Virus record (IMG/VR): IMGVR_UViG_3300029705_000072
DNA: 64,000 nucleotides
Reading direction: 5' to 3' (one strand)
From: a virus
Taxonomy: Duplodnaviria > Heunggongvirae > Uroviricota > Caudoviricetes
In this document: positions 110-45,480 of the stretch, piece by piece
How positions within the stretch are numbered: the first letter of the stretch is position 1
Layout: every line of letters begins with the position of its first letter
Program-made: the position numbers and the translations under genes
Notes under the pieces: generated by a model
Database searches by the model: none
Told to the model about the DNA's origin: nothing
Seen by the model: only the letters and a program-made list of their open reading frames with translations

Positions 110-580
110 ACAAAAACGCTTGTAATGGTTCCGCTTACTTGAGCGCGACCGTTTCAAAACCTACTTAGAGAGGATATTGCTCTGAGGGCTCTATAGCCGA
201 TATAGCGTCGCCGGTGCTGCGGAGTTAGGCCGCAGGATTCGAGATTGTGAAAATCCCCGGGGTTTTGTGCCTATGAGACCAAACGCGGCTCGCGGAACTG
301 ATGGCTATACGCAAAAGATCTATGAGGGCGACTCTGCTCGCGGTATATCTCCCCGAGGGGATATGTTCCAAGGAACTGATATAATGCAACAAGTCGAGTC
401 ATCTAATTGGGTTGAGTAGCGCGAAGTCCAAGCGAATATTACGAAACCTATATGGTTATCGTTGACTGAGCCGCCCTATATGGGCGGCTTTATTGAGCGA
501 TAACTTAGTTATTGCCAGAATTTTACCATGGGACCGCCTAAGGCGGTTCTGAAAACAGTTTGAATCAACAGGAGGCCAGT

Positions 581-3137: not shown

Positions 3138-3218
3138 GCTCCGATAGCTCAATTGGTTAGAGCGCACGGCTTATACCCGTGGAATCTGCTGGGGGTTCAA
3201 GTCCCTCTCGGAGCACCA
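3138..3218 (+). tRNA. tRNA-Ile (anticodon UAU), encoded CCA
   Basis: acceptor gctccga/tcggagc, D-arm gctc..gagc, anticodon loop cuUAUac, T-loop ttcaagt. Confidence 0.75.
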
Positions 3219-3479
3219 TCGGACCGCGATCGGGTCCCAGTGTAGCGTCCTTGTTAGTTTAAGGGTGAAACTAACTCTTGTCAGTAATGGTGAAACTGTC
3301 CCGTCGGGATATAACGGTAATTCCTTGCGTTTGTGGTGCGAGGCAATTATCCCAACCACATATGTCAACTTAGTTTAAGGCAAGAACACTGCGCTTATGA
3401 TGCAGAGGTATCAGTTGAAGTCTGATAGTTGACTCCCGAAAGGCCTACGGGTGGCTCTCAGGAATAGACTGAGGCATGC
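3219..3479 (+). ncRNA. structured non-coding segment between two tRNAs (unknown RNA)
   Basis: no credible ORF; internal repeats ttagtttaagg x2 and ggtgaaact x2; long-range complement gtcaact(3366)/agttgac(3431); several hairpins. Confidence 0.3.
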
Positions 3480-3554
3480 GCCGTCATGGCTCAATGGTAG
3501 AGCGGCTGCTTTGTAAGCAGCGGGTTGGGGGTTCGAATCCCTCTGGCGGCTCCA
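3480..3554 (+). tRNA. tRNA-Thr (UGU)
   Basis: acceptor gccgtca/tggcggc, anticodon loop ttTGTaa, T-arm ggggg-ttcgaat-ccctc, CCA encoded. Confidence 0.85.
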
Positions 3555-5658: not shown

Positions 5659-6240
5659 ATGGGAATTAGAAATTTTATTTCGGACAACGCAGTCTGGAAG
5701 TTCGCAAAGCGCAATTCAGAACGTCTGCAAAAAGAGTTTGCCGTGATCATGAGTAACGACGACGAAGGATATAAGTTCTGTGTGAGCATGGACAAGGATA
5801 CCGTAATCCTTACAATCTTCAATAAGTTCGGAGATACGTCGTATATAACGGAATGTCAGGGCGAGGAAGATTGCCTGAGGAATGTAAAATGGCTGAGAGA
5901 ACTTTATTTCAAAGAGAAAAAGGTTATCGAGAAAACCGACAAGAAGCCAGATTCTTTTGATTCCCCTGGTGAATATCTGATGGAGTTTATCGACGACGAA
6001 AGGGAGGCAAGCCTTAGAATTGCGCTCGAAGACTTCATGTATGTTGTAGCCGGCTTCGATAGCAGGGAAGATGCTGAAATGGAGTACGGCGTTGGAATAA
6101 TGGAAGCCGTTCTCGATGATATTCTGCGGCTTCTTCTGGATGACTTCGGTATTTCGGTGTACAGACCGGCCATAGTACCGGAAAAGAAAACAGGGGAATT
6201 CGTCATGAGCGAATACCCGTACGATGACATAGGGAATTAA
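5659..6240 (+). CDS. hypothetical acidic protein
   Basis: 193-aa ORF, RBS ggaaggag. Confidence 0.5.
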   Translation: MGIRNFISDNAVWKFAKRNSERLQKEFAVIMSNDDEGYKFCVSMDKDTVILTIFNKFGDTSYITECQGEEDCLRNVKWLRELYFKEKKVIEKTDKKPDSFDSPGEYLMEFIDDEREASLRIALEDFMYVVAGFDSREDAEMEYGVGIMEAVLDDILRLLLDDFGISVYRPAIVPEKKTGEFVMSEYPYDDIGN

Positions 6241-6334
6241 CCCTATTAAAAAGGTAGGCAGTAGGATTACCTACATAACAATATTACCGCGCATAAGCGG
6301 CTTTTTTAATGCAAAAAAAAAGGAGGAATTGTGT

Positions 6335-6724
6335 ATGTCTAAGTTTGTAGTAGCAGGTGATGCAGTTGTTGTAACCTCTGCGGTGAAGTTCGACGATATC
6401 GTCGCACTGAAGAAGTACCGCCCCGAAGCCCTGTGTCTGAAGGACGAAGAGGGTCGTGTAATTTTCAAGGTGGGTATCGGCGCTACCGGTGGCGTAAGCG
6501 ACTTCGGCATTACCTTCACCAGCGAAAGCAACGATGATAAGGGGTTTGCACAGGTAACCATCATCGCACCCGACCATGATGGCGATGCAAAGGCCGCGGT
6601 TGTTGACAGCCATTTCGTTGCAATCGAAAAGCTGGAAAAACTGGAAAAGCATATCGCAGAAGAACTCGCTTCTGTAGAGGAAATGAAGAAGAAGATTTCC
6701 GAATCCGTGTCCGTTGTGGCATAG
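6335..6724 (+). CDS. hypothetical protein; first gene of the Ubl/JAB/E1 cluster (speculative E2-like: ...YRPEALCLKDEEG...)
   Basis: RBS AAAGGAGG; single Cys in an RPEALCLKD context reminiscent of the UBC HPN-x-CL-D motif (weak). Confidence 0.45.
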   Translation: MSKFVVAGDAVVVTSAVKFDDIVALKKYRPEALCLKDEEGRVIFKVGIGATGGVSDFGITFTSESNDDKGFAQVTIIAPDHDGDAKAAVVDSHFVAIEKLEKLEKHIAEELASVEEMKKKISESVSVVA

Positions 6725-6801
6725 AAAACATGTCTGCTGGGCGGTATGTGTGATTGCATGCCGCCCTTATTTATAACTTGAGTACGAAAAGGAGAATAAA
6801 A

Positions 6802-7044
6802 ATGGTACAGGTAAGAATCAGAAACAATTTCGCAGATATCACCGAGGTCTTCAGCGTCGATATGACCATTCGCCAGATTCTGGCCGAGAAGGAGCAGGCA
6901 ATCGATGGCTGCACCGTTTCTCTGGATGGCTACGCACTGAGTGCATCCGATATGGGCAAGACCCTCCTGCAGCACGGCTATGATGGAACCACCGGTAAGG
7001 ACAGATGTAATCTGACCATCGTTGCCAAGACCAATAATGCATAA
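6802..7044 (+). CDS. ubiquitin-like beta-grasp candidate (81 aa), no C-terminal GG
   Basis: Length and hydrophobic periodicity align with ubiquitin (MVQVRIRN.. / ..LDGYAL..TLLQHGY / NLTIVAK vs MQIFVKT / LEDGRTLSDYNI / LHLVLRL); RBS AAAAGGAGAA. Confidence 0.4.
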   Translation: MVQVRIRNNFADITEVFSVDMTIRQILAEKEQAIDGCTVSLDGYALSASDMGKTLLQHGYDGTTGKDRCNLTIVAKTNNA

Positions 7045-7071
7045 GTAACGGCCGGCACAAAGCCGGCTTTT

Positions 7072-7157
7072 GGGGAGTTGGCAGAGTGGCTTAATGCAGC
7101 GGTCCTGAAAACCGTCGATCGAAAGATCCGTGGGTTCGAATCCTACACTCCCCGCCA
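7072..7157 (+). tRNA. type II (long variable arm) tRNA, probably Ser (UGA)
   Basis: acceptor ggggagt/actcccc, variable arm gatcgaaagatc hairpin, anticodon loop ccTGAaa, T-arm gggttcgaatcc; the annotated ORF 7078 starts inside it. Confidence 0.7.
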
Positions 7158-7182
7158 TAAAGAAAAACAGGAGAGGTGTATT

Positions 7183-8604
7183 ATGTTTAAGGAGATTATT
7201 ACAAGAACTGCGCTTTGCAATATCGACGCAAATCAGTACTTCAGTAACATTCGAGGAGACTCATATATGGGCGACGTAACGTTCTTGTCCACACTCAGAG
7301 CTCTCCTGATGAACAGAGTTGATAAAGAAGAGGAACTGCAATTTGTGGTGTCCAGAAGAAGAGTAAGCAACACGCTTAACAACAGAGAACTTGTTAGAGA
7401 GGCTATTGGCGAGCCGGAATATCTCGACAACAACACTTTTTTCCTTGTTGACCTCTCGGGTCCAGTCGATAAAAACAAAGAGATCATTGGTAGACTTGAA
7501 AAATTAATGCCCGAAAGAGGGTTTGAGAATCTGCAGAAGGTCCGTGTGTTTTACAAAAAATCCTTTGAGGTAGCAGCATTTGCCAACGCTAAGAAAAAAA
7601 TCACCGTTGTGGTTGTTGGCAATATGGATATCAGAAAGTATCACTATCTGCAGTGCGCGACGTTCGCTCTCTTCCCTTGGTACTTCAATCCGAAAGATGG
7701 TTGTAGCGAACTCGAAAGACGAATGATCGAAGCAATGCGTCAGAAAGACGGTGATGAGTGCACTGCGTGTTATGAGGAGTTCGCAAGTGGTTTGGATTTC
7801 CGTACCGGAAAAATCAAATCCGCTTTTGAGGGGTTTGAAGAGTCGTTTTTCCTGAAACAGAAAGATAATCTTACTTCTCAGATTAGAAGTATTGACTCTG
7901 ATGTGGAAAGATATCAGAAGACTATCAGAGATATGCTTCAGAAGCGCAGAAATTACATGATGAATCTTGCCGGAATCGACCTCGGTCTCAAACAGGCTAA
8001 CAGCGGCGAACTTGTGGATTATTTCCTTCGGAACAAAAATCTCTCAGTTGTCGATGCGGTCGGGGACTATGTGTATTTCACCATAGACACATATATTACA
8101 GATTTTGTAATCGACGACGCAAAGCCCATAATCGAAAACAGTAGAGGGTATATACATGACGCTATCATGGCAACACCGGATCCCGATGGCACAAAGGCTT
8201 TGTTTAAAGAAATTTTTACAGAAGAGGATCCGCGAATTAGAATTAGAACGAAGGCAAAAGTAAGAATCGGCAAGAGCGGGTCTTTCGACAGCGATAGACC
8301 GATCGGACAGGGCTTGATAAATGACGAACTCAACGACCAAGTCCAGAATACTCATATCTGTAGATATAGCTGTTTTGGCAGTGAAAGAGAGGAGTTTTTT
8401 ACAGAAGCGCTCTCTAGACAGGATCATGTTATGATTGTCGAACAGTGTATCGCTGCGGCTAGAAATCTTAATTTCAACGACAGTATTGTTGGAAGAGATT
8501 TCTTCAACGATCTCGTAAGAACAAACGGAAGGGTGTTTGAGGTTATTGAAACCGGAGAGAAAATGAACCTGGCGGACGCTATTAAGTGGGTAAAGGAGAA
8601 TTAG
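7183..8604 (+). CDS. large hypothetical protein (473 aa), first ORF of an operon with JAB and E1
   Basis: start moved to MFKEII (RBS ACAGGAGAGG) because upstream in-frame codons are tRNA sequence; overlaps the next gene. Confidence 0.6.
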   Translation: MFKEIITRTALCNIDANQYFSNIRGDSYMGDVTFLSTLRALLMNRVDKEEELQFVVSRRRVSNTLNNRELVREAIGEPEYLDNNTFFLVDLSGPVDKNKEIIGRLEKLMPERGFENLQKVRVFYKKSFEVAAFANAKKKITVVVVGNMDIRKYHYLQCATFALFPWYFNPKDGCSELERRMIEAMRQKDGDECTACYEEFASGLDFRTGKIKSAFEGFEESFFLKQKDNLTSQIRSIDSDVERYQKTIRDMLQKRRNYMMNLAGIDLGLKQANSGELVDYFLRNKNLSVVDAVGDYVYFTIDTYITDFVIDDAKPIIENSRGYIHDAIMATPDPDGTKALFKEIFTEEDPRIRIRTKAKVRIGKSGSFDSDRPIGQGLINDELNDQVQNTHICRYSCFGSEREEFFTEALSRQDHVMIVEQCIAAARNLNFNDSIVGRDFFNDLVRTNGRVFEVIETGEKMNLADAIKWVKEN

Positions 8605-8606
8605 TT

Positions 8607-9398
8607 ATGTCCAGCATTATTAAAATTACCGATGACTACATCGAAGAATGCGTAAAAGAGTTCAAAGACGAACTTATTAAGTGCAGGATGGACGGGAAAT
8701 CCGAAATCAATTTCAAAAAAACGGTTTCTTCTGATAGCGAAAAGGCCGTCCTTTATATCGACTCTGCGGCGTATGCGAAGATGCAGGCTCTTGTATCTTC
8801 TTTTGACAAAGAGGTTGCATGGCATGGTCTTGCAGAGCGGATGGGGGACGAAAAACTCCACTGCTATCGAATTTATGACATCCTGTGTTACCCGCAGATT
8901 GCAGGAGCCGTAACGGTAGAGTCCGACGACGAAAGATACGGCGGCTGGTTTGATAAGCTCGAGAGCGATCAGGTAAACAATATGAGAATGCAGGGGCATT
9001 CACACGTTAATATGAGCGTTTATCCGTCAGTAACCGACGATAAGGACAGAGCGAACATGTTATCCATGATGCCCGGTGATGCATTCTATATCTTCATGAT
9101 TTGTAACAAGCGCGGTGAGATGAACACAAAAATTTACGACATGAAGAAGAATAAAATGTTCGGCAACCACGAAGTGTCCGTATATGTTTACACTGACGAT
9201 ATGGCTGAATTCATTAAGGAAGCCAAGGATTTTGTTAGATCTGTTGCGGTAGTGACCCCGATTCAGAAAGTAAATCAGGAGAAGGCGGTCGAAGAAAAGA
9301 AAAAAAACGAAAAAAGAGAAGAAAAAAGCGTAGGTAATCATAAGTACTCGTACATCGATGATACATGGGATGGTTACGAGGACTATGCATATATGTAA
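8607..9398 (+). CDS. JAB/MPN (JAMM) metalloprotease, deubiquitinase-like
   Basis: JAMM motif H-S-H-x7-S-x2-D present (HSHVNMSVYPSVTDD); RBS AAGGAGAA. Confidence 0.7.
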   Translation: MSSIIKITDDYIEECVKEFKDELIKCRMDGKSEINFKKTVSSDSEKAVLYIDSAAYAKMQALVSSFDKEVAWHGLAERMGDEKLHCYRIYDILCYPQIAGAVTVESDDERYGGWFDKLESDQVNNMRMQGHSHVNMSVYPSVTDDKDRANMLSMMPGDAFYIFMICNKRGEMNTKIYDMKKNKMFGNHEVSVYVYTDDMAEFIKEAKDFVRSVAVVTPIQKVNQEKAVEEKKKNEKREEKSVGNHKYSYIDDTWDGYEDYAYM

Positions 9399-9415
9399 AG
9401 AAAGGAGATGCTATC

Positions 9416-10087
9416 ATGGATTTGTCTAAGAGCTACGATTTCTTTAAGCCTGAAACGGACAAGAGTAGAATTCACATCATTGGATGTGGCTCCGTCGGTG
9501 CAACGGTTGCTGAAAACATTGCAAGATGCGGTGTGAAGAACTTCCATCTGTGGGATTTCGACAAGGTCGAGCCTCATAACATTGCAAACCAGCCGTTCAG
9601 GCACAAAGATATCGGCAAAGAAAAGGTAGAGGCGCTGAAAGAAATGATCTGTGAGATCAATCCGGACGCAGCTGATAGCGTTGTGCTTCATAACAAGGGT
9701 TGGGACGGCCAGAATCTCACCGGCTATGTCTTCCTGTGCGCAGATAGTATGAATGTTCGTCGAAATGTTGTAGAGCAGCACATGATGAGCACCAATATCA
9801 GAGCAATGTTCGACTTCAGAACCAGACTTACTGACGCTCAGCATTACGCAGCCGACTGGGCAGATCTCCGAATGAAAGAGAACTTTTATAAGACGATGGA
9901 TTTTTCGGATGAAGAAGCAGAAGCGGCAACTCCCACATCAGCGTGTGGTGTATCTCTTTCTGTATGCCCGACAATCAGAATTATTAGTGCATATGGCGTT
10001 GCAAACTTCATGAACTTCTGGAGGGGTGAGCCCATTAAGAAGATGATAGTTGCAGACGCATTCGCTTTTGACACGATGGCTTTCTAG
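9416..10087 (+). CDS. E1-like adenylyltransferase (ThiF/MoeB/HesA family), minimal 223 aa
   Basis: Rossmann motif IIGCGSVGA; D-x-D-x-V-E-x-H-N-I-x-N-Q (DFDKVEPHNIANQ); RBS AAAGGAGATG. Confidence 0.8.
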   Translation: MDLSKSYDFFKPETDKSRIHIIGCGSVGATVAENIARCGVKNFHLWDFDKVEPHNIANQPFRHKDIGKEKVEALKEMICEINPDAADSVVLHNKGWDGQNLTGYVFLCADSMNVRRNVVEQHMMSTNIRAMFDFRTRLTDAQHYAADWADLRMKENFYKTMDFSDEEAEAATPTSACGVSLSVCPTIRIISAYGVANFMNFWRGEPIKKMIVADAFAFDTMAF

Positions 10088-10428
10088 TCAAAAGCCATAT
10101 TTGCGATGCATTCTTTACGACGGTAAAGGCTGTTCGCTATGTAAGCAACAGTAACAAATTGTTCAACAGGGGAACGGGCGGGCAGACGACTGAAGGAGCT
10201 GCAGAAGGCGCCGGCATAAAAATCAAGACAATGAATCTAACGTCCAAGTCCAAACGCCATAAGGAAAACCTCGAAAACGAAAACCCGACGAGGTGAGAAC
10301 AAACCTGCGAAGAGCACCCAGCAAACCTACCTGTCCTCCCAAGACCAGGATGAGGACATCCTCCGTCCCAGCGGTCCTGATCGTTGACGCCAGAAAACAT
10401 ATTTAGATCGCAAAAGAAAGGCACAACT
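10088..10428 (+). ncRNA. structured non-coding region upstream of the RT (candidate RT-associated ncRNA/template)
   Basis: about 340 nt without ORF; hairpins (ctttacgacggtaaag); short inverted repeats at both ends (tttgcgat / atcgcaaa); shares the blocks agtaacaaattg, ctgaaggag and aacaaacctgc with region 11581-11975. Confidence 0.4.
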
Positions 10429-11580
10429 ATGATTTATGTAACAGTAAAGCAGTCACCGGTATTCAAGCAGATGTCAATAGAAGACCTGCTCTTTGGTGAC
10501 TTCGACAACAAGAAATTCGAATTCTTTTCGAACGGCGTATCTTCTACGAAGACATACGCCGTTTCTTATTTGTCCGAAAGAATGTCTAAAAATATTGGGG
10601 TGGATATCGATAACCTGATTGATAAGTTGAAGGCTTTTAATAATAACTACGCTGATCTTATGAGCATGGAACGAAGAGAGTTATATTCCACCTTCCATAT
10701 CCCCAAAAGAAGTGGCGGTCTTAGAAAGATCGATAATCCGTGCCCCGAACTGAAGAATGCACTCTATGTTCTTAAGGGTATTTTCGAAAACGATTTCCAT
10801 GCAATGTACCATACCAGTGCGTTTGCGTATGTGAAAGGTAGATCTACCGTAACAGCTGTTAAGAAACACCAGGCAAACGAGAGTAACTGGTTCGGCAAAT
10901 TCGACCTCACAAACTTCTTTGGAAGTACAACTATCGACTTTACGATGAAAATGCTTTCGATGATTTACCCTTTCAGTAGCGTAATCGAGAAGGCAGAGGG
11001 CGAGGCAGAACTCCGTAAGGCATTAGACCTTGCGTTTCTGGACGGAGGTCTTCCGCAGGGTACACCGCTTTCTCCCATGCTCACAAACATCATAATGATT
11101 CCAATCGACTTCGAACTGAACAAGGAGTTTAGAAACCTGAACGGTAAAAAGTTTGTGTACACAAGATACGCAGACGACTTCCATATTTCTTCAAGAACGG
11201 ACTTTAAGGTGTCTGAGGTAGAAGACGCAGTAATTAAGGTTCTTGAAAAGTACGGTGCACCTTTTTCACTTAACAGAAAGAAGACGAGATACGGCTCTTC
11301 TGCAGGTAGAAACTGGATTCTTGGCACGATGCTGAATTCAAACAATGAAATCACCGTTGGCCATAAGAAAAAGAAGCAGGTTCAGGCGATGATTCATAAC
11401 TACATCAGAGACAAGAAGTCCGGTATCGACTGGGATAAGAACGACGTTCAGGTTCTCAGTGGATATATCAGTTACATCCAGATGGTTGAAGGTGATGTGG
11501 CTAATAGAATAGTCGAGCACATGAACCAAAAGAACGATGTTGACCTGTTCAAAATGATCAAGGAAGACATTGCAAAATAG
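10429..11580 (+). CDS. reverse transcriptase (stand-alone prokaryotic RT; retron/DRT/UG-like)
   Basis: RT motifs: IPKRSGGLRKI (1-2), AFAYVKGRS, FGKFDLTNFFGS (3), LPQGTPLSPMLTN (4), YTRYADDF (5); about 100-aa N-terminal and about 140-aa C-terminal extensions, no endonuclease or maturase domain. Confidence 0.85.
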   Translation: MIYVTVKQSPVFKQMSIEDLLFGDFDNKKFEFFSNGVSSTKTYAVSYLSERMSKNIGVDIDNLIDKLKAFNNNYADLMSMERRELYSTFHIPKRSGGLRKIDNPCPELKNALYVLKGIFENDFHAMYHTSAFAYVKGRSTVTAVKKHQANESNWFGKFDLTNFFGSTTIDFTMKMLSMIYPFSSVIEKAEGEAELRKALDLAFLDGGLPQGTPLSPMLTNIIMIPIDFELNKEFRNLNGKKFVYTRYADDFHISSRTDFKVSEVEDAVIKVLEKYGAPFSLNRKKTRYGSSAGRNWILGTMLNSNNEITVGHKKKKQVQAMIHNYIRDKKSGIDWDKNDVQVLSGYISYIQMVEGDVANRIVEHMNQKNDVDLFKMIKEDIAK

Positions 11581-11975
11581 TAAAAAATGCCGCTAAAACC
11601 GGCGTTTTATAAACAGCATTGCGTATTACAACGAGTTAATATCCGTTGTGCTATTCGCTAAAAGCAGTAGTAACAAATTGCTGGACCAGCCAGGAGAGCT
11701 GCCGCATCTGAAGGAGGCGGGATCAGTAGCCAACAAACCTGCTTGCATAGTCAAACTACGATACAACTGCTGGCAAAGAATATAAGGCCAAAACAGGGCT
11801 TGAAAATTCAACAAACGCAGAGAGCAGCAACCGGTCAATAAAAGATGAAGCATCTCATAAAGAGTTAATTATGATTAGTAAAATCGGCGAAAACCAGGTA
11901 AAAGCATATTAAGGCAATGTTGTTATAGTGAAAATCACGCGCAGCCAAAACGACTGCTCCGTAATAGCCGGAGAT
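11581..11975 (+). ncRNA. second non-coding region downstream of the RT, partly homologous to 10088-10428
   Basis: no ORF; hairpins acaacg..cgttgt and gctgg-a-ccagc; shared sequence blocks with the upstream region. Confidence 0.35.
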
Positions 11976-11978
11976 TAT

Positions 11979-12053
11979 TGGGGTATCGCCAAGCGGTAAG
12001 GCACAGGGTTTTGATCCCTGTATTCGATGGTTCGAATCCATCTACCTCAGCCA
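11979..12053 (+). tRNA. tRNA-Gln (UUG)
   Basis: close match to the Firmicute tRNA-Gln pattern tggggtatcgccaagcggtaaggc...; anticodon loop ttTTGat; T-arm gatggttcgaatccatc; CCA encoded. Confidence 0.85.
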
Positions 12054-12091
12054 AAATTTTATTTATCAAGCCGGAAGAGAGGAGGAACTGT

Positions 12092-12433
12092 ATGGAAGAA
12101 ATATTAAACACCTTTTGTGCTGGAGATATCGTAAGGGTAAACCCGGAAACACCGTCCATTCATTGCGGGGATGCATTTGCATACGTTCCATACGAGGATA
12201 TGCTCTCGGCTAATGCCACAGTCGTTAAGGTTAGTGAAGATAGAATCGAAGGAACGCTGATAGGTCTGGAATTTGATTTAAAGGATAAACGCACCGTTTT
12301 ACATTCATGTGTCGATAACTACGTGGGGCACGGAAGAGAAGGCTACTGTTGGTGGCTTCGCCCAGAATGCTGTATACCGGTTCTGGCGGACGAAATGACA
12401 GAAAGCGAAGAGGATATTACGATGTTGTTATAA
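12092..12433 (+). CDS. paralog family member 3 (acidic tail ESEEDITMLL)
   Basis: RBS GAGAGGAGG; start placed after the tRNA. Confidence 0.6.
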   Translation: MEEILNTFCAGDIVRVNPETPSIHCGDAFAYVPYEDMLSANATVVKVSEDRIEGTLIGLEFDLKDKRTVLHSCVDNYVGHGREGYCWWLRPECCIPVLADEMTESEEDITMLL

Positions 12434-12467
12434 CGCTTAAAAATGTTTTGTGGGTGGTGAGAAACAG

Positions 12468-12800
12468 GTGAAATTTATAATTGGCGATATTGTTTCCGTA
12501 AAAGAAGGAACGCGTGTCGGAAATGACAGAACTGTATTTAACGTACCGAGCAAGGATCTTATCGGCATTCCAGCAACCGTTCTTGGTTTTAAAAACGGAG
12601 GAACATTAGTCGGTGTGAAGTTTCACATAGACAAAGCAATGAGTAGTCTGCACAGCTGCGGCACTATCGAACCGCCTGGACGTTCTGGTCGCAATGGATA
12701 TTGTTGGTTCCTGGACGAAAGTTTGTTGCGGTTCTATGAGGAAACAACTGGCCTTGACCTTGATGAATCGACAGAAGACATTAAGATGCTTCTTGTGTGA
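12468..12800 (+). CDS. paralog family member 4 (probable GTG start)
   Basis: IIGDIVSVKEGT...LHSC...GYCWFLDESLL...STEDIKMLLV. Confidence 0.55.
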   Translation: MKFIIGDIVSVKEGTRVGNDRTVFNVPSKDLIGIPATVLGFKNGGTLVGVKFHIDKAMSSLHSCGTIEPPGRSGRNGYCWFLDESLLRFYEETTGLDLDESTEDIKMLLV

Positions 12801-12846
12801 TCGCGTTATAACCAAATAATTGTTTTATGAAGGAGGTTGCGGTGTG

Positions 12847-13176
12847 ATGTCTACTGATTTTAAAGTAGGGGATTTGGTTGTTTTACACCAGAACACACCC
12901 GTGCGGTACGGACGTTATGCACCGAGCGCTGTGCCTAGCGAAGAAATGAAATCGGTTTGTGCTACCGTTGTTGGCGCTGAATACAATTCATACCTTCTTG
13001 ACTTTGTTTTAATAGAGAAGGTTCCAGAATTTTTACGACCAACTCATACCGACAATGACGGCGATCATTATTATTGGTTTGTAAAAAAAGAATTCGTATT
13101 ACCAGCGATTGCAATGGATGTATCTGACTTTATTGAACCAGAAGAAGACGCAGATCCGTTGTGTATGTTTATGTAA
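12847..13176 (+). CDS. paralog family member 5
   Basis: RBS AAGGAGGT; FKVGDLVVLH...YYWFVKKEF...EPEEDADPL. Confidence 0.55.
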   Translation: MSTDFKVGDLVVLHQNTPVRYGRYAPSAVPSEEMKSVCATVVGAEYNSYLLDFVLIEKVPEFLRPTHTDNDGDHYYWFVKKEFVLPAIAMDVSDFIEPEEDADPLCMFM

Positions 13177-13422
13177 TAGCGCTTGATTCTGTGGAATTCA
13201 GGCGTGTCGACCCCTCTGGGCGCGCCGTGAAAGCCGGCATTATTACCAAAATGTAATTTTAAGTGGAGGATTTGACTATGGAAACTGTTTATCTAACCGA
13301 TATTACTGGAACTATTGGCGAGTGGCTTGATGCAGATTTTGATAGCGAAGTACCGAATGAAGTTATTGAGTTGCTGAAAAAGGCATATGAGATTGCAGTA
13401 AAAGAATTTGAGAGGTAATTCT

Positions 13423-16400: not shown

Positions 16401-16481
16401 GTCCGTGTGGTGGAATGGCAGACACGCAGGGTTTAGGTTCCTGTGCGAAGCGTGTGGGTTCAAGTCCCACCACGGACACCA
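16401..16481 (+). tRNA. tRNA-Leu (UAG), type II
   Basis: perfect 7-bp acceptor gtccgtg/cacggac; anticodon loop ttTAGgt; long variable arm; T-arm gtgggttcaagtcccac. Confidence 0.85.
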
Positions 16482-16484
16482 TAT

Positions 16485-16575
16485 GGCCGGGTAAGCATAG
16501 TTTGGTACTGCAGCGGTTTGCTAAACCGTTCACCGAGTGATCGGTGCGCAGGTTCGAGTCCTGTCCCGGCCGCCA
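16485..16575 (+). tRNA. tRNA-Ser (GCU), type II
   Basis: acceptor ggccggg/cccggcc; anticodon loop ttGCTaa; variable arm caccgagtgatcggtg. Confidence 0.85.
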
Positions 16576-16654
16576 AAAATCTTCGTCGTGGTTGCATTCG
16601 GCGGACGGTTTTTTATACTCCATTAGGCGATAGGTTTATCCCTATCGCCACCCA

Positions 16655-16738
16655 GGGGTTGTGATGGAAAGGCAGACATGACGGACTTAAAATCCGTTGG
16701 AGAAATCCGTGTGGGTTCAAGTCCCACCATCCCCACCA
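16655..16738 (+). tRNA. tRNA-Leu (UAA), type II (one acceptor mismatch)
   Basis: anticodon stem acgga/tccgt with loop ctTAAaa; D-arm matches the other Leu tRNA; T-arm gtgggttcaagtcccac. Confidence 0.75.
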
Positions 16739-16741
16739 TAT

Positions 16742-16834
16742 GGAAAGATAAGCCTAATGGTAAGGCAGCGGTCTCGAAAACCGCCAGTAGCCATCTAAGA
16801 TGGCGTATGAGTTCAAGTCTCATTCTTTCCGCCA
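16742..16834 (+). tRNA. tRNA-Ser (CGA), type II
   Basis: acceptor ggaaaga/tctttcc; anticodon loop ctCGAaa; long variable arm. Confidence 0.8.
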
Positions 16835-16837
16835 TAT

Positions 16838-16914
16838 GCGGCGTTGATGTTCAATGGTTAGCATATCAGCCTTCCAAGCTGAGTGAGCCGGTTCGAGTCC
16901 GGTACGCCGCTCCA
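16838..16914 (+). tRNA. tRNA-Gly (UCC)
   Basis: acceptor gcggcgt/acgccgc; anticodon loop ctTCCaa; T-arm ccggttcgagtccgg. Confidence 0.85.
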
Positions 16915-17035
16915 GCCCCTTGCCCGGGCACACGCTACTTTTCCTTGGTGGTAGATTGGTAAAACCACCTTGTCAGGATGTGGCAGAGACCATACCTTGT
17001 CGGCGGAACGAGGAAACATCCATCCGCTATTTTTT
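16915..17035 (+). other. non-coding segment with degenerate tRNA-like pieces and a T-run
   Basis: ggatgtggcagag resembles the Leu tRNA D-arm; hairpin ggtggtagattggtaaaaccacc; ends in ctattttttc; no intact T-arm. Confidence 0.25.
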
Positions 17036-17112
17036 CTGGGTGTAGCGCAGTTCGGTAGCGCGTCTGTTTTGGGTACAGAAGGCCGCTGGTTCAAATCCAG
17101 TCACTCAGACCA
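17036..17112 (+). tRNA. tRNA-Pro (UGG)
   Basis: acceptor ctgggtg/cactcag; anticodon stem tctgt/acaga with loop ttTGGgt; T-loop ttcaaat; CCA encoded. Confidence 0.85.
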
Positions 17113-17397
17113 ACCTTTATAGGTCGTGCAGATTTGTTGGTAATACATAACTGAAAGTTTGAAGAATCAACATCTCTTCGCCCATGGTAGGAGAAACACA
17201 TTGTTGGGTAGTGGTTTTTCTTTATTAACGCCTCAGTGGCAACCATAGCAGGCTGCCAAGAGGCGTTAAAACACGATCACAACGCAATCGCAGATCTGAA
17301 CACACCAGCGCCTCCAAACTCAAGGAGGAGCTAGTGTGTCCACATCATCGCGATCGGACGACCTAAACAAAAGATTAAAAAGAAAGGATTTTGTACT

Positions 17398-33435: not shown

Positions 33436-34137
33436 ATGGGAAACGAATCCCTAAACATCTACCAGCGACTTGCCATTATAGGGAAATCGGTAGATGTAAT
33501 GAAGAAAAACACAAAAGCATACGGCTATAACTATGTCAGAGAAGAAGACATACTGACGAGAATTAAGGCTCGTATGGAAAAGCAGGACGTATCTCTAATT
33601 CCGCAGATCGTACCAGGCACACTCAAAGTAATCCCGTACACATACGGAAAAACAAAGGCAATGCAAAACGGAACTATTTACGAAGAAAAGGTAAATGAAG
33701 TCCTGATTTCAGCTGATATGGTGTGGCGATGGATCTGTAATGACAACCCAAAAGAGTATGTTGATATTCCCTGGGGAATGGTCGGACAGCAATCCGATGC
33801 GTCTCAGAGTTTTGGCTCCGGTCTTACATACTCGTCAAGATACTTCCTGTTGAAGTATTTTAATGTCGCAACATCTAACGATGATCCAGACAAACTGCGT
33901 AGTGACCAGAAGAAGTCAGAAGCAGAGATGAGTAAGCTGATGACAGAAGAAATTATCGAGGCGATCGATTCAGAGGTACGTGGATTCCTTGGAGAAAACC
34001 CGGGGAAATCTGATGAAGTGAAGAAGTTTATGTCCGAATATGTAAAAGAGGGAAATTACAAGAAGGTAACCGAACCAAGAGTTGCCGGTAAGATCCTGTC
34101 AGACTTCAAAGAAAAGTTTGGGTCTGTAAGTAAATAA
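33436..34137 (+). CDS. ERF-family single-strand annealing protein (recombinase)
   Basis: position upstream of SSB; N-terminal resemblance to Erf. Confidence 0.55.
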   Translation: MGNESLNIYQRLAIIGKSVDVMKKNTKAYGYNYVREEDILTRIKARMEKQDVSLIPQIVPGTLKVIPYTYGKTKAMQNGTIYEEKVNEVLISADMVWRWICNDNPKEYVDIPWGMVGQQSDASQSFGSGLTYSSRYFLLKYFNVATSNDDPDKLRSDQKKSEAEMSKLMTEEIIEAIDSEVRGFLGENPGKSDEVKKFMSEYVKEGNYKKVTEPRVAGKILSDFKEKFGSVSK

Positions 34138-34566: not shown

Positions 34567-35349
34567 ATGAATGGTGTGAATTATGCTCCGGTCATCGATG
34601 AGATGACCTGGAGTTATTCTCGGATAAAAACCTTTGATGACTGTCCATATAAGTGGTATTTGACGTACATCATGGAGTTCAGTGGAAGAGATATGTTCTT
34701 CTCCGGCTTCGGTTCGTTGATGCACGAACTGATCGAAAAGTTCTATAAAGAGGGAAAGAGCGCCGAGTATCTGGCGCTCGAGTACCTTTCTAGATTTTAC
34801 GATGATGTTCCAAGAAATGCTCCGAGCGTTAAGGTTTTCGAAAACTATTTTACGGACGGACTAAGGTATTTGCGCGGAATTCAAAGAGTGCCGTACGAAG
34901 TCATTGGCGTTGAAGAAAAAATAGAGTTTGAAATCAGCGGAAAAAAGTTCGTTGGCATTCTTGACCTTATAGCGAAAGACGATAGCGGGGTTTTAATCAT
35001 TGACAACAAGTCCAGAAAACTAAAGCCGCGCAGCAAGAAGAGAGTTCCAACAAAGAGCGATCTTGAACTGGATGACTACCTACGACAGCTTTACTTGTAT
35101 TCCGTCGGTCTCAGAGCCTCTCATGGACTCGAAACCACATCCCTATGCTTCAATTGCTTTAGAGAAAACCTATTTATTAAAGAAAAGTTTCACCAGGAAG
35201 CATGCGATGAGGCAGTCAACTGGGCTCTTGAGAAAATAGAGCAAATCAGAAAAACCGAAGATTTTAAACCGAGAATGGATTTTTTCAAATGCAGATATCT
35301 GTGCGAAATGAACGAACACTGCGAGTATTACCAGATCAACAACACATAG
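34567..35349 (+). CDS. PD-(D/E)xK nuclease, Cas4/RecB-like with 4-Cys cluster
   Basis: IIDNKS (D/ExK), N-terminal DDCPYKW Cys plus C-terminal C...CRYLC...C cluster. Confidence 0.65.
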   Translation: MNGVNYAPVIDEMTWSYSRIKTFDDCPYKWYLTYIMEFSGRDMFFSGFGSLMHELIEKFYKEGKSAEYLALEYLSRFYDDVPRNAPSVKVFENYFTDGLRYLRGIQRVPYEVIGVEEKIEFEISGKKFVGILDLIAKDDSGVLIIDNKSRKLKPRSKKRVPTKSDLELDDYLRQLYLYSVGLRASHGLETTSLCFNCFRENLFIKEKFHQEACDEAVNWALEKIEQIRKTEDFKPRMDFFKCRYLCEMNEHCEYYQINNT

Positions 35350-37713: not shown

Positions 37714-39897
37714 ATGAAGCCATATGTAACATACCATCTACATAGTCATTACAGCTTGCTAGATAGCTGTACAAAGTTTGAGGACTATGTGGACAAGGCG
37801 GTCGAGCTCGGTCAGAATGCAATCGCTTCTACGGAACACGGCAAGCCAATGGGGTGGATTTCAAAGAAAATGTACTGCGATGAAAAAGGAATTAAGTTCA
37901 TTCATGGCGTGGAAATCTACCTTACTGAGTCGCTAGATGAAAAGGTCAGAGATAACTACCACACGATCCTGCTAGCAAAGAACTTCAGTGGTGTTAAAGA
38001 ACTAAACGCACTTGTTAGTAAGTCGTGTGAAGAAGACCACTTCTACTACACAAACAGAATTTCGTTCGATGAGTTCCTTGGTATTTCCGACAACATCATA
38101 AAGACGAGCGCATGTCTGGCATCACCGCTAAATAAACTGCCAGACGACCATCCGAGATATGAGGAACTGGCTAGGAAGTACGACTTCCTCGAAATACAGG
38201 CTCACGACCATCCGGATCAGGCAGCCTTCAACAAGCGTCTATACGAGCTTTCCAAAAGAATCGGTAAGCCACTGATAGTCGGGACTGATACGCACAGCCT
38301 TGATTCGTACAAGGCGGAGTGCAGAAGCGTTCTTCTGGCGGCAAAGAACAAGAACTACGGTGATGAAGACAGCTTCGATCTTACCTACAAAACATACGAC
38401 GAACTGATTGATATGTTCAAGAAACAGGGCGCGCTTCCAGAAGACGTGTACACTGAGGCTCTTGATAATACGAACCGGCTGTATGAGATGTGCGAAGACT
38501 TCGAACTGGATAAGAGCATTAAGTACCCAATACTGTACGGGTCAAGAGAGGCAGACTCAAAGAAGTTTGAGGAAACCATCTGGGCTATGTTCGAGGAAAA
38601 AGTGGCTACGGGCGTTATTACAGAAGAGCAGAAACAACCGTTCATCGACGCAATTAACGAAGAACTAAGAGTTTTTCAGAAGTTGAAGATGGATGGGTTC
38701 ATGCTTTCGATGTCAGAACTCATCAGGTGGTGCAAGAGCCATGGAATGGCGATAGGAACCGCCAGAGGCTCTGTCGGTGGTTCAAGAATAGCGTACGTCA
38801 CAGACATAATCGACCTCAATCCGGAAACGTGGAAGACGGTTTTCTCTAGATTCTGCAACGAGGACAGAACGGAGATCGGCGATATAGATATAGACGTAGT
38901 CGAATCTGATCGACCAGAGATTTTCCGACATATCATAGGGCGATTCGGTAAGGATAAGACGGCAAGAGTGGCGTCGTTCGGTACGCTGCAGGCAAAAGCC
39001 GTAATAGATGAAGTCGGACGAGCACTCGCAAAGAGATGGGAAGCGAACAATCCCGGAGCTGAAAACAACCCGTACTCATTAAAGCGAATCGCGTCTGTAA
39101 AGGATGAGTTCGATAAGGATCCAGAAGCAACGAAGGAAAAACATAAGGACATATTCTACTACTTCGATGGACTTTTAGGTACAAAGGTTTCCCAGTCAGT
39201 ACACCCAGCCGGCATGGTCATCAGCCCAATCTCACTTAATGAAAACTATGGCGTGTTCGACAAAGACGGCGACATGTGCTTGATGATGGATATGGAAGAG
39301 GCTCATGAGGTCGGCGCTGCTAAATATGACTTCCTTGTTCTTAAAACCGTACAGGTCATAAGAGATACGTGTAGGTACATAGGCACAAGTTATCCCAAGA
39401 CGAATGAAATCAACTGGCTTGACGATGAAGTGTGGGATGACGTTGCAACAAGTCCGATCGGCTTGTTCCAGTTCGAAAGCGGGTTCGCGTTTGAGTGCAT
39501 CAAAAAGTTCAGACCAAGAAGCATCTTTGATATGTCTATTGTAACCGCTTGTATCAGACCGTCTGGTACATCATATAGAGATGAACTGTTACAGCGAAAG
39601 AAGCACAAGAACCCGTCAGAGATCATCGACGGGCTTTTGAGTGAGAACCTTGGATATCTAATCTACCAGGAAGACACGATTAAGTTCCTGCAGCAGATAT
39701 GCGGGCTGTCCGGCAGTGAAGCAGACAACATCAGAAGAGCAATCGGCAGAAAACAAAAGGATAGACTTGATGCGGCGTTGCCGTCGATTCTCGATGGGTA
39801 CTGCAGTAAGTCACAGAAGCCTCGTGATGAGGCAGAGGCAGAAGCGAAAGAATTTCTACAGATAATTGAAGACAGTGCGTCTTATCAATTCGGGTGA
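37714..39897 (+). CDS. dnaE: DNA polymerase III alpha (DnaE) N-terminal exon (PHP + polymerase core)
   Basis: PHP motif YHLHSHYSLLDS...STEHG; the ORF stops inside the conserved FNKSHAAAYA region. Confidence 0.8.
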   Translation: MKPYVTYHLHSHYSLLDSCTKFEDYVDKAVELGQNAIASTEHGKPMGWISKKMYCDEKGIKFIHGVEIYLTESLDEKVRDNYHTILLAKNFSGVKELNALVSKSCEEDHFYYTNRISFDEFLGISDNIIKTSACLASPLNKLPDDHPRYEELARKYDFLEIQAHDHPDQAAFNKRLYELSKRIGKPLIVGTDTHSLDSYKAECRSVLLAAKNKNYGDEDSFDLTYKTYDELIDMFKKQGALPEDVYTEALDNTNRLYEMCEDFELDKSIKYPILYGSREADSKKFEETIWAMFEEKVATGVITEEQKQPFIDAINEELRVFQKLKMDGFMLSMSELIRWCKSHGMAIGTARGSVGGSRIAYVTDIIDLNPETWKTVFSRFCNEDRTEIGDIDIDVVESDRPEIFRHIIGRFGKDKTARVASFGTLQAKAVIDEVGRALAKRWEANNPGAENNPYSLKRIASVKDEFDKDPEATKEKHKDIFYYFDGLLGTKVSQSVHPAGMVISPISLNENYGVFDKDGDMCLMMDMEEAHEVGAAKYDFLVLKTVQVIRDTCRYIGTSYPKTNEINWLDDEVWDDVATSPIGLFQFESGFAFECIKKFRPRSIFDMSIVTACIRPSGTSYRDELLQRKKHKNPSEIIDGLLSENLGYLIYQEDTIKFLQQICGLSGSEADNIRRAIGRKQKDRLDAALPSILDGYCSKSQKPRDEAEAEAKEFLQIIEDSASYQFG

Positions 39898-40850
39898 ACG
39901 GTTCGCCCGTCCGCGTGAAAACGGTCAACTAGGTTGTAAGGCCAAGGTGGTAAGAGAGCCTAAGTCCTTCGGGATATGGTGATACCGTGCTAAGTTTTGT
40001 TTGGATAAAAAGAAAGAAAGGAGGTGTGACATGGAAAACCTGTCTGGACAGAGATTTAAAAGCCTGTTAGTAACGGATGAGTATAAAAGAGAAAAACAAG
40101 AACATGGAACAAAAATTAAGTGGAAATGCGTATGCGATTGCGGAAATGTGTTATTCGTATATGCAGACGCTCTAAAAAGAAGACGTGTTGACTACTGTAG
40201 TAAATGTAGACCGCGTGGAGTTAGAAACGATAGATTATATCACATATTCCACGGAATGATTCAAAGGTGTTATAACACAAAAAACCCGAACTACAAAAAA
40301 TACGGAAGCGCGGGTATTGTTGTTTGTGATCAATGGAAGAACTCCTACGATGAATTTAGGTATTGGGCACAGACCAATGGATACAAAGAAGGTCTTACGA
40401 TAGACAGAATAGATCCACACGGCAATTACTGCCCGGAGAATTGCAGATGGGTTAGTCTTGGTGAAAATGGCGGAAGAGCAAATATCGGTGTTCATAAAAA
40501 TAAAACAAGACTAATTAACCCAGAGGCGGTTTCGCCCGACGGCGAAGTATATAGAATATCGAACATCTCATTATTCGCAAGAGAGAATGGATTAAATCGT
40601 GCGGGCGTTAGTGCTGCTCTCCATGGAAGGTGCGACTGCGAGTATATGGGATGGAGATTTTCATCTAATAAATCCAAACAATAAAAGTGTAACGACTATC
40701 GAGAACACGTTCGCAGAGAAATACTGCGTTCGGAAGTTAGTAGAGTAGGGCGAATAAAGCCCGAAGCGCGTGGGCGCAGTTTCCGGTAAAAGGATGCTGC
40801 GTAAGATATAGTCTGCGCCGTCGGAAACGACGGATCAAAGTGACAACCAT
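39894..40850 (+). mobile_element. group I intron interrupting dnaE, carrying an HNH homing endonuclease ORF
   Basis: dnaE reading frame resumes at about 40849 (..HSIAYCLLGYLCAYYRHYYPLEF aligns with SHAAAYALLAYQTAYLKAHYPAEF); structured flanks; boundaries approximate. Confidence 0.7.
40031..40684 (+). CDS. HNH homing endonuclease (intron-encoded)
   Basis: RLYHIFHGMIQRCYNTKNPNYKKYGSAGIVVCDQWKNSYDEFRYWA and IDRIDPHGNYCPENCRWVSLGEN (HNH_3); RBS AAGGAGGTG. Confidence 0.8.
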   Translation: MENLSGQRFKSLLVTDEYKREKQEHGTKIKWKCVCDCGNVLFVYADALKRRRVDYCSKCRPRGVRNDRLYHIFHGMIQRCYNTKNPNYKKYGSAGIVVCDQWKNSYDEFRYWAQTNGYKEGLTIDRIDPHGNYCPENCRWVSLGENGGRANIGVHKNKTRLINPEAVSPDGEVYRISNISLFARENGLNRAGVSAALHGRCDCEYMGWRFSSNKSKQ

Positions 40851-41801
40851 TCAATCGCATATTGCCTACTCGGGTATCTATGTGCGTACTACCGGCACTA
40901 CTACCCACTGGAATTTATTACGTCGTTTCTGAACAACGCAGCGAACGACGATGATATACAAAGCGGCACGATCCTGGCGAAGCAAAGAGGAATTAAAATC
41001 CTGCAGCCAAAGTTCGGCCTATCAAAAGGAAACTACTTCTTTAATAAGGAAGAGAACGTGATCACCAAGGGACTCGCGTCGGTCAAATATATGGGTGATA
41101 AGGTGTCCGAAGAACTGTACAACATGTCAGTCAAGAAAGAGTACAAGCGCTTCACCGACGTACTGCTTGATATAGAACACGAGACGTCGGTCGATTCGAG
41201 ACAGTTCGAGATTCTGGTGAAGCTTGATTTCTTCTCGCGTTTCGGCAACCAAAGAGAACTGCTTTTAATCCGCGACGTATTCGATATGTTTAAGGGCGGC
41301 GATGCGAAAAAGATAAGCAGGGACAAGGTTGACGGCACGCAGTTTGAGGAAGTGGTTAGAAGGCACTCAACATGGGTGAACAAAAACGGAACCGAATCGA
41401 AAAGTTATACACTACTTCGCCCACTCGAAGTGATAAAAGAGATGGAAGATGTAATTCTCTCGATGGGTATCGAGGACATGACACCAGAGGTACGGGCTAG
41501 GAACTTCTTTGAAATCATGGGGTACGCCGGCTACATAACCGGAAACGAAGAGGACAGAAGAAAGTTGTTCGTAACGGCGGTATTTCCGGTCAAAAGAAAA
41601 AAGGACGGAATGCTGTTCGGGTACAACCTGGTGACACAGTCGATTGGGTCTGGGAAGGAAAGTAGGCTTACCGTATTCAAAAACAAGTACGGATACAAGA
41701 AGTACGATTCGGATCCAATCAAGGAAGGCGACATAATCCTTCTGAAAAAGTACGAGAGAAATGGAGCGTACTTCAATTTGGTAGATTATGTAATTTTGTA
41801 A
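40849..41801 (+). CDS. dnaE: DnaE C-terminal exon
   Basis: conserved ..AY.LL.Y..AY...HYP.EF block in frame with ORF 41058..41801. Confidence 0.7.
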
Positions 41802-45191: not shown

Positions 45192-45480
45192 AAACCTTGT
45201 GAACCCAAATATTTGGGGTGTACAGTCGACGTTTAGTATCCGTAGGAAATGACGGATAACGATTGTGCTAACCGGGGAAGCCACGATGTGGTCAATCCGG
45301 TGGGTCGCGTTGTGCGGCCTCAATCGACTATCGAAACGATAACGCAGCACGAAGGCTGCGCGAATAACGGAGTAGAGTACTCTTTCGGTGAAATTCCGAA
45401 CGAGGAAGTGCAAGGCACCCGGCTCCAGTGAATCGGGTGATGATATAGTCAGAGCGGCACACGAGTAAGAGCGTGGTATG
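45189..45480 (+). mobile_element. ORF-less group I intron-like insert splitting nrdD (about 290 nt)
   Basis: conserved NrdD frame stops then resumes 286 nt later; GC-rich structured segment; precedent of introns in phage nrdD; boundaries approximate. Confidence 0.5.

Follow-up and report, generated by a model that had tools for sequence, protein, structure and literature searches.

A retron-type reverse transcriptase between two putative template RNAs in a gut-phage genome segment

The stretch of DNA analysed here, called the window throughout, comprises 64,000 nucleotides (nt) of a virus of the class Caudoviricetes (IMG/VR record IMGVR_UViG_3300029705_000072) and is a segment of a phage genome, in which a gene for a stand-alone reverse transcriptase (RT) lies between two non-coding regions. 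The co-directional order on the + strand is tRNA-Ser, a protein of 473 amino acids (aa), a JAMM-motif protein, a ThiF/E1 protein, a gap of 341 nt, the RT, a gap of 398 nt and tRNA-Gln. We consider it probable that the RT and its two flanks (10088–10428 upstream, 341 nt; 11581–11978 downstream, 398 nt) make up a phage-borne retron-type retroelement, in which one RT serves two cognate template RNAs, one encoded upstream and one downstream. [quoted passage not shown] The parts of the element, all on the + strand, are as follows.

10429–11580, +: retron-clade RT, 383 aa (Pfam, PADLOC, NCBIfam and PDB matches and family alignment)
10100–10414, +: non-coding RNA (ncRNA) module U, msr–msd-like, 315 nt (covariance model, stem search and minimum-free-energy (MFE) fold)
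10100–10107, +: a1 of module U, tttgcgat, pairing with a2 over 8 base pairs (bp)
10108, +: candidate priming G of module U, directly after a1
10113–10118/10123–10128, +: hairpin 1 of module U
10130–10138/10144–10151, +: hairpin 2 of module U
10150–10161, +: motif AGTAACAAATTG of module U
about 10166–10405, +: T-poor template of module U
10406, +: opposing G of module U
10407–10414, +: a2 of module U, atcgcaaa
11612–11924, +: ncRNA module D, 313 nt (covariance model, stem search and MFE fold)
11612–11622, +: a1 of module D, AACAGCATTGC, 11 bp with a2 including one G–T pair
11623, +: candidate priming G of module D, directly after a1
11628–11633/11644–11649, +: hairpin 1 of module D
11651–11659/11663–11670, +: hairpin 2 of module D
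11669–11680, +: motif AGTAACAAATTG of module D
about 11685–11912, +: template of module D
11913, +: opposing G of module D
11914–11924, +: a2 of module D, GCAATGTTGTT

An earlier note on this DNA, made from the letters alone, had described an RT of 383 aa with the motifs IPKRSGGLRKI, NFFGS, LPQGTPLSP and YADD, set between two regions free of open reading frames (ORFs). All four motifs are present in the translation, and the two regions are 341 and 398 nt long. The ORFs that a mechanical search finds in them are short (45 aa on the + strand, 95 and 75 aa on the − strand) and are non-coding, because homologous modules differ by insertions or deletions of 1–2 nt and because their open frames are no longer than those of composition-matched shuffles. 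The upstream repeat tttgcgat/atcgcaaa that the note had seen joins 10100–10107 with 10407–10414; the downstream flank has a repeat of its own, AACAGCATTGC/GCAATGTTGTT, which had been overlooked. Three short blocks said to be common to the flanks were found at both sites, i.e. agtaacaaattg (10150–10161 and 11669–11680), aacaaacctgc (10298–10308 and 11732–11742) and ctgaaggag (at about 10190 and 11709), the last being semi-conserved, with GAAG(G/A) in 52% of modules as against 25% of shuffles. The MFE folds of both modules are closed by their own a1/a2 pairs, and an unconstrained stem search recovers a1/a2 of module U together with the G.

The RT gene starts with the ATG at 10429, and its N-terminal MxYITV is common to homologues. 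The protein matches Pfam RVT_1 (E 1e-19) and, in PADLOC, dozens of retron RT models, headed by RT_II-A (1.2e-52) with I-A, XIII and III-A next. Its top match in NCBIfam is retron_St85_RT (8e-58), at 196 bits against a cutoff of 235, a shortfall that makes it a distinct clade outside the St85 subfamily. In the PDB, the RTs of the retrons Ec83, Ec78, Ec86 and Ec67 come first (5e-22 to 5e-12), Kva2 is matched as well, and the alignment spans the retron thumb to the C-terminal end. Profile classification thus puts retron models at the top in all three collections, and by sequence the RT is a member of the retron clade. Retron RTs are marked by NAxxH in region X and VTG in region Y, motifs that are most strongly conserved at the H and the G (PMC7736814). 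Across 13 diverse members of the family to which the window RT belongs, both this H and this G are invariant, as are YTRYADD, GGLPQGTP, xLG and AVKxH. An N-terminal extension of about 60–70 aa is specific to the family, and neither an endonuclease nor an integrase domain was noticed in the RT in Pfam and PDB comparisons. Some family members (P0155, P0158, P0162, P0171 and others) are longer, at 450–480 aa, and match the query in two stretches; this implies that about 75 aa are inserted within their N-terminal third.

The two modules were characterized against more than 150 related loci from gut viromes (IMG/VR) and metagenome-assembled genomes (MAGs). A scan of IMG/VR loci with the window RT itself gave no relatives; those used here were reached via an RT homologue of 57% identity. 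One relative, L001, has three copies of one unit around its RT, and the consensus order of this unit is a1 (usually ending in TGYAAY), G, hairpin 1, hairpin 2, a purine-rich stretch, about 200 nt of variable sequence, (T)GTAG and a2, with the 3′ strand of hairpin 2 ending in the AG of a near-invariant motif, AGTAACAAnTTG. Aligning whole modules with MAFFT gave unreliable results over the template and put hairpin 1 as well as the window's module D out of register, and covariance models and a stem search of our own were therefore used. The first model was built from 14 modules of relatives and zero window sequence, whereas the seed alignment of the second included both window modules, so that only the E-values of the first are an independent test. 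In the 64 kb searched, the first model finds 11627–11684 (module D) at E 1.4e-7 and 10102–10165 (module U) at E 2.7e-5; with the second, the values are 1e-8 for U and 8e-10 for D. As the models align module D ten bases out of register at a1, its a1 and G were placed by stem search.

Matches to the first model number 88 at E ≤ 0.001 in 46 sources and a further 72 at E ≤ 0.01 in 56 additional MAG loci, and across the related loci all of them lie beside the RT and on its strand. In the model-fitted alignment, 91.3% of cells pair, compared with 68% in shuffles and 37–52% in slid controls, and pairing in hairpin 2 reaches 99.8%, 7 of its 8 pairs having changed in both partners; covariance folding thus describes the two flanks as paralogous ncRNA modules with strong covariation. 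The strongest evidence for the modules, however, comes from their a1/a2 stems. In the large majority of 71 modules, the best stem (mostly 8–15 bp) ends at the same model position with a G next to it, and a G precedes a2 in a similarly large majority. The modules have dozens of distinct yet complementary a1/a2 sequence pairs, and stems of at least 8 Watson–Crick pairs occur in 88% of them as against 5.5% of shuffled controls. Published criteria for a retron ncRNA are an a1/a2 repeat of more than 8 bp, a priming G, several hairpins and two opposing Gs. Modules U and D are contiguous with the RT and have a1/a2 stems of at least 8 bp, both Gs and a structured msr, with the priming chemistry assigned by analogy; in its layout, each flank is a complete msr–msd-like unit, its template running to about 230 nt. 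Neither at gathering thresholds nor at E ≤ 10 did Rfam match the flanks to any family, be it a retron msr, an intron or another. At the most divergent RT loci (36–45% identity; L063, L073, L080, L139–L148 and L150) the models gave no significant match, L146 being marginal at E 0.046; L150 has a non-coding gap of about 380 nt 5′ of its RT, and the RNA of these loci has probably diverged beyond the model.

Duplicated modules on both sides of an RT, which the earlier note had thought unusual, are instead the norm in a large phage family, in which each RT has from one to five. In IMG/VR loci there are 1–3, most commonly a single upstream module with a tandem pair downstream, and tandem neighbours can lie within a few nt of each other; one MAG locus has up to five matches, and some modules lie 1–3 kb downstream of the RT, among genes. 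The a1/a2 pairs of paralogous modules of one genome differ, whereas orthologous modules in different phages keep their pair, and a distinct pair for each module agrees with the units folding separately on a longer transcript. By analogy, hairpin 2 and the UAACAAnUUG motif may be the common recognition element for a single RT. Modules are retained at four RT loci that have no ThiF/E1–JAMM genes within 5 kb. Among loci that do carry these genes, only L211 (IMGVR_UViG_3300021431_000092, 5932–13392) has no RT within 4 kb, and it has no module either, which suggests joint loss.

The templates are C-rich and poor in T (13% in U and 17% in D, compared with 26% in the window; a mean of 18% over 24 modules compared with 25% in their loci). 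Neither has a second copy in the 64 kb window, and an msd 21-mer from a relative occurs once per related contig. Between phages with RT genes 97–99.7% identical, the first 86 nt or so and the last 45 nt or so of a module are almost invariant, whereas the central 190 nt or so differ at up to 36% of sites; where the RT is 97% identical, the msr is so at 98–100% and the msd at 72%. Along 6 kb, sequence identity falls at the centre of the template in each of the three modules; the only other dips in the stretch compared, at 6.5–7.6 kb of L001, are provisionally put down to insertions and deletions. The template centre diverges 2–13 times as much as the four-fold degenerate sites of the RT gene. 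Such faster-than-neutral change requires local hypermutation, diversifying selection or allele exchange. A, C, G and T contribute evenly to the variable columns (45–60% each), and transitions are about as frequent as transversions; adenine mutagenesis of the kind found in diversity-generating retroelements (DGRs) does not fit, because all four bases vary alike. In one subgroup (L001, 3650–5754, and relatives), RNAalifold pairs the conserved AATTGTC of the msr motif with a mid-template GACAATT, which could mark a stop of reverse transcription; in the window modules U and D this pairing was not seen.

If the element works as established retron biology would have it, each module should fold alone because its a1/a2 pair is unique, and the RT would recognize the shared element made up of hairpin 2 and the single-stranded UAACAAnUUG motif. 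It would then prime on the 2′-OH of the G after a1 (G10108 and G11623), and copying would start next to a2, with the DNA beginning 5′-CTAAA in U, 5′-CTTAA in D and 5′-CTACA in most relatives. Two branched msDNAs, distinct from each other and about 200–250 nt long, would result, and up to three to five in relatives. More speculatively, the RT–msDNA complexes and the neighbouring ThiF/E1–JAMM genes might form a phage-carried conflict system against competing phages or host immunity, and the template centre might be a surface under arms-race selection or might be mutated via Erf-annealed, RT-made DNA in the replicating genome.

The genes upstream of the RT, which we call the cassette, are the following.

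6329–7044, +: two small conserved ORFs heading the cassette (131 aa, 6329–6724; 96 aa, 6754–7044)
7183–8604, +: 473-aa protein, a fold without known match; first large cassette gene
8586–9398, +: JAMM/JAB-motif protein, about 263–270 aa, whose motif HSHVNMSVYPSVTD fits HxHx7SxxD
9365–10087, +: ThiF/E1-like adenylyltransferase, 240 aa (223 aa on related contigs), Pfam ThiF at 2.4e-22

The adjacency of an E1/JAB operon to the RT, reported in the earlier note, is borne out by the last two of these genes. PADLOC E1–E2 models match the ThiF/E1 protein at up to 2.5e-18, in the adenylation region only, and the NCBIfam 6A-MBL model cap2_3 also matches the E1 region; neither an E2 nor a ubiquitin-like (Ubl) protein with a terminal Gly-Gly was recognized among the cassette proteins. 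Searches of Pfam, PHROG and the PDB with the JAB-motif protein and the small ORFs gave nothing above threshold; nor did the 131-aa and 96-aa ORFs have a Pfam or PHROG match above threshold. In tblastn searches, the former was found in 30 related loci and the latter in 10, always upstream of the 473-aa protein. The 96-aa ORF probably starts at MVQVRI near 6802, and a ubiquitin-like role for it is a guess. For the large protein, a mechanical ORF of 508 aa begins at 7078, inside tRNA-Ser (7072–7157), and the true start is probably the ATG at 7183, giving 473 aa identical to the catalogued P0121.

The order 473-aa protein, JAMM-motif protein, ThiF, RT is found in essentially all IMG/VR loci with enough upstream sequence, the JAMM-motif gene being kept upstream of ThiF in nearly all related loci. 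Among MAG loci, about 95% have the cassette upstream of their RT, even where RT identity is as low as 36–40%, and its order also holds in a relative reached via a 473-aa homologue of 26% identity. Conversely, 62 of the 64 loci fetched via the 473-aa protein have the RT, the exceptions being one cut at a contig end and L211. The genes downstream of the RT are not conserved among relatives. In L096 (4664–7814) the order is 473-aa protein, JAB-motif protein, module, RT, ThiF, module, with the RT inside the cassette. Tight as this linkage is, all the cases may be of common descent, and the cassette–RT link is therefore only possibly functional.

Four further features adjoin or resemble the element.

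10076–10098, +: hairpin ATGGCTTT/AAAGCCAT, read from the sequence, spanning the ThiF stop codon, directly 5′ of module U
11589–11609, +: short hairpin GCCG/CGGC followed by a T-run, read from the sequence, directly 3′ of the RT stop
11979–12053, +: tRNA-Gln(UUG) (ARAGORN, Rfam), bounding the downstream flank
17139–17207, +: weak, doubtful third msr-like element, possibly decayed (E 0.04 with either covariance model)

The hairpin after the RT could be a weak terminator or processing site, and L001 has a hairpin at the equivalent position; a terminator scan did not call it, and promoter and terminator scans gave nothing useful. The tRNA-Gln is probably outside the retroelement, because relatives have other genes at that position. 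Directly 3′ of it lie three small tandem ORFs (12090–13176, +), the first two paralogous at 35% identity, which are confined to the window's own lineage. The element at 17139–17207 lies in a 290-nt gap after tRNA-Pro and has an intact hairpin 2 and the motif AGAAACA; its a1-like segment has no following G and no a2 was found, and it may be a decayed orphan module or a chance match.

Elsewhere, the window encodes a DnaB-like helicase, a primase, a DNA polymerase and an anaerobic ribonucleotide reductase, and ARAGORN and Rfam find 11 tRNA genes and a RAGATH-16 RNA, the latter at 191–262 (+) with a score above the Rfam gathering score. The tRNA clusters (3138–3554 and 16401–17112), with two tRNA-Ile(UAU) among the 11 tRNAs, are typical of tRNA-rich gut phages. 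A tyrosine-type integrase (48461–49705, +; phrog_1 at 3e-56) makes the phage probably temperate. An Erf-like single-strand annealing protein (SSAP; 33436–34137) and an exonuclease (34567–35349), both on the + strand, form a Red-like recombination pair. The DNA polymerase is divided between two ORFs (37714–39897 and 41058–41801, +), both phrog_405, with an HNH endonuclease ORF (40001–40684) between them, which suggests an intron or homing-endonuclease insertion. NrdD likewise comes as two ORFs (44013–46536, +), matching the N- and C-terminal halves of phrog_487, and the gap of about 290 nt between them may hold an intron.

Among GenBank phages there was no close relative of the window, DNA similarity being confined to the tRNA-Gln. 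At the protein level, 5417 sequences (90% clusters) match the RT at E ≤ 1e-10, a set that includes more distant retron-type RTs; the best 120 of these are full-length matches at about 57–59% identity. The RT family comprises 440 clusters (50% identity) with E ≤ 1e-30, over 150 of them reaching E ≤ 1e-64. Its members come from the guts of human, rabbit, horse, ruminant, chicken and termite hosts, and they sit on contigs of about 50–300 kb, mostly binned with Clostridia MAGs. The sole GenBank phage record in the family, MT835544.1 (39% identity), is an unannotated human-faecal contig. On this sampling, a large undescribed gut-phage family appears to carry the RT and its templates as a core block. 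The searchable literature, which leaves subscription-only papers outside its scope and an earlier description therefore possible, held no account of phage retron arrays or of a link between an RT and E1/JAB proteins.

Several observations weigh against reading the locus as a retron with an attached effector. The RT scores below the curated cutoff of its nearest NCBIfam retron family, and the hallmark NAxxH is altered to (D/T)AVK(R/K)H and VTG to (N/I)LG in its family. In the template, only local hairpins are predicted (folding z-scores of −1.5 and −1.1), a conserved long msd-type hairpin is absent, there is no covariation in the centre, and the ends of the DNA product are not predictable. For the cassette, the 473-aa protein has no informative structural match despite a confident model (a predicted local distance difference test score, pLDDT, of 88), the JAB call consists of the motif and a sub-threshold Pfam Prok-JAB match (E 0.099), and an E1/JAB effector was found in no known retron type in the PADLOC retron models or the searchable literature. 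Conservation as a core block across RT identities of 36–57% is, moreover, unusual for accessory defence genes. ‘Defence’ is an assumed label; the element behaves as a core gene block of a phage lineage and unlike a sporadic defence island.

The most serious alternative accepts the RT and its modules as a self-contained retron-like unit and regards the E1/JAB cassette as an unrelated neighbour held in place by inherited gene order. We give this somewhat less than an even chance. Adjacency could be inherited synteny in one phage lineage, and all loci appear to come from one broad gut-phage group; ThiF and the RT are separated by anything between 295 and 1633 nt, and further genes can intervene; the modules persist at four RT loci that have no cassette within 5 kb, one cassette locus lacks the RT, and E1/JAB partners belong to no known retron type in the same models and literature. 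What speaks for a functional tie is the co-occurrence of about 95–98% in both directions, down to 36–40% RT identity and with unconserved genes on the other side of the RT, together with the position of the RT inside the cassette in L096. It is rather improbable that the msDNAs act as donors for the Erf-like protein, which would write RT errors into their own templates, or edit another phage or host target, as a natural ‘recombitron’. Retron DNA together with an SSAP reportedly edits phage genomes, and the presence of an Erf-like protein and an exonuclease in this phage makes annealing of error-bearing, RT-made DNA onto its own locus mechanistically possible. The excess divergence of the template centre between a nearly invariant, non-templated msr and nearly invariant template ends would agree with this, as would the change of all four bases expected of general polymerase error. 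Set against it, the window holds no second template copy and the msd 21-mer is single in each related contig, functional constraint would explain the conserved ends equally well, and diversifying selection or recombination between alleles gives the same pattern. The full combination—a core retron array making several hypervariable msDNAs, a conflict role with the E1/JAMM proteins and Erf-driven self-change of the templates—is unlikely as a whole, though less so than we judge the recombination-donor proposal as an explanation in its own right.

Other types of retroelement fare worse. Modules that are non-autonomous, retro-mobile passengers copied and inserted by the RT, comparable to short interspersed nuclear elements, would explain copy numbers of one to five, tandem arrays and modules among downstream genes; we hold this to be very improbable. 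All copies share the strand of the RT and lie no more than a few kb from it, none elsewhere in the 64 kb window surpasses E 0.04, and neither target-site duplications nor an endonuclease or integrase domain in the RT were noticed. The distinct a1/a2 pairs of paralogous modules are, in addition, orthologously conserved, which points to duplications that are old and maintained by selection. A shade less probable still is a mechanism like that of the defence-associated RT DRT2, in which the a1/a2 stem would join the template ends for rolling-circle reverse transcription into a concatemeric cDNA encoding a de novo gene. The earlier note had suggested a likeness to retrons or DRT2-like RTs, and its retron half stands, through RT class and module anatomy, while its DRT2 half is not supported. 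An ncRNA beside a stand-alone RT, a stem that juxtaposes the template ends and a weak, partial Drt2 match (E 8e-11) would suit such a mechanism, but that match, at 41.7 bits against a cutoff of 390, covers the catalytic core only and is far exceeded by the retron models. The two Gs, one following a1 and the other preceding a2, are placed as retron priming would have them. In 47 modules, neither strand has open frames longer than those of shuffles, and the template has no stop-free frame; module lengths are not bound to multiples of three, and 1–2-nt insertions or deletions separate close relatives. Least probable of all is a DGR or a degenerate group II intron, even though a phage RT, two partly similar non-coding regions and a hypervariable template centre might call one to mind; here the earlier note's two exclusions hold. 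As to a DGR, there is no DGR RT family among the NCBIfam matches, no adenine bias and, in the window and related contigs, no copy of the template in a protein gene in the manner of a variable repeat; the variation sits in the template itself and not in a target. As to a group II intron, the RT/maturase model reaches 84.7 bits against a cutoff of 300, and Rfam finds no intron domain even at E ≤ 10.

A retron-type retroelement with one RT and two template RNAs thus remains our preferred reading, and its implications reach beyond this phage. Known retrons protect bacteria against phages and pair one RT with one template RNA; they are also much used as in-cell DNA factories for genome editing. If our reading is right, a retron-type RT would be a standard, deeply conserved part of an abundant gut-phage group, raising the question of how phages use msDNA, be it as decoy, sensor, means of rival exclusion or recombination donor. 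Natural multiplexing, in which up to about five templates are kept apart by a1/a2 pairs of their own, would offer a design rule for multiplexed retron editors, and this set of RTs is likely able to copy long templates of more than 200 nt. Templates that outpace synonymous sites present a rate anomaly relevant to RT-driven self-mutagenesis, and the link between reverse transcription and Ubl enzymes would, if functional, be a new effector class.

Among known systems, the nearest are the retrons of types I-A and II-A (Ec78/Ec83 and Ec86/St85) as classified by Mestre et al. 2020 (PMC7736814). With these the element shares an RT homologous over its full length including the thumb, an adjacent ncRNA on the same strand with a1/a2, a G after a1, an opposing G before a2 and msr hairpins, and other conserved genes next to it. 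It differs from them in its number of modules, from one to five for each RT, placed both upstream and downstream and frequently as tandems, against a single upstream module there; in a template that is long (about 200–250 nt), T-poor, hypervariable and without a conserved long hairpin; in xAVKxH and xLG in place of NAxxH and VTG, and the N-terminal extension; and in being a near-universal block of tRNA-rich gut phages of about 50–170 kb, whereas retrons lie in bacterial defence islands. Nor do the described types I–XIII have a ThiF/E1 and JAMM-motif cassette as neighbours.

Retrons do occur on prophages, as with Ec73 on a P4-like prophage and Ec67. These, like the retron-type RTs of Klebsiella P2-like, Pf and Staphylococcus jumbo phages, resemble the present case in placing a retron-type RT in a phage genome. 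The phage RTs are, however, only about 26–29% identical to the window RT and are sporadic accessory genes, and to our knowledge each of these phage and prophage retrons has a single ncRNA. DRT2 (UG2) shares the stand-alone RT and an adjacent structured template RNA with ends joined by a stem, but belongs to another RT clade; the priming-G anatomy found here sets the two apart, and the present modules have no endless reading frame. The cassette resembles the Ubl cassettes of Bil, of CBASS (Cap2/Cap3), of 6A-MBL and of PRTRC in placing a ThiF-type E1 beside a JAMM-motif protein and small ORFs. In contrast to these, its E1 is short (about 225–240 aa, the adenylation core only), no E2 was recognized, the JAB match is sub-threshold, the large partner has no known fold, no Gly-Gly Ubl was identified, and the whole is linked to an RT. 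Engineered multiplexed retrons or ‘recombitrons’ also have a single RT serving several templates alongside an SSAP, which the present genome encodes as well, but they are artificial constructs, whereas the arrangement described here is natural and conserved. The element is thus retron-like in the clade of its RT, its a1/a2 repeats, its two Gs and its structured msr, and yet it appears to stand outside all described retron types because of its distinct RT clade, its multiple templates, the length and hypervariability of these templates, its place in a phage core block and its E1/JAMM neighbours.

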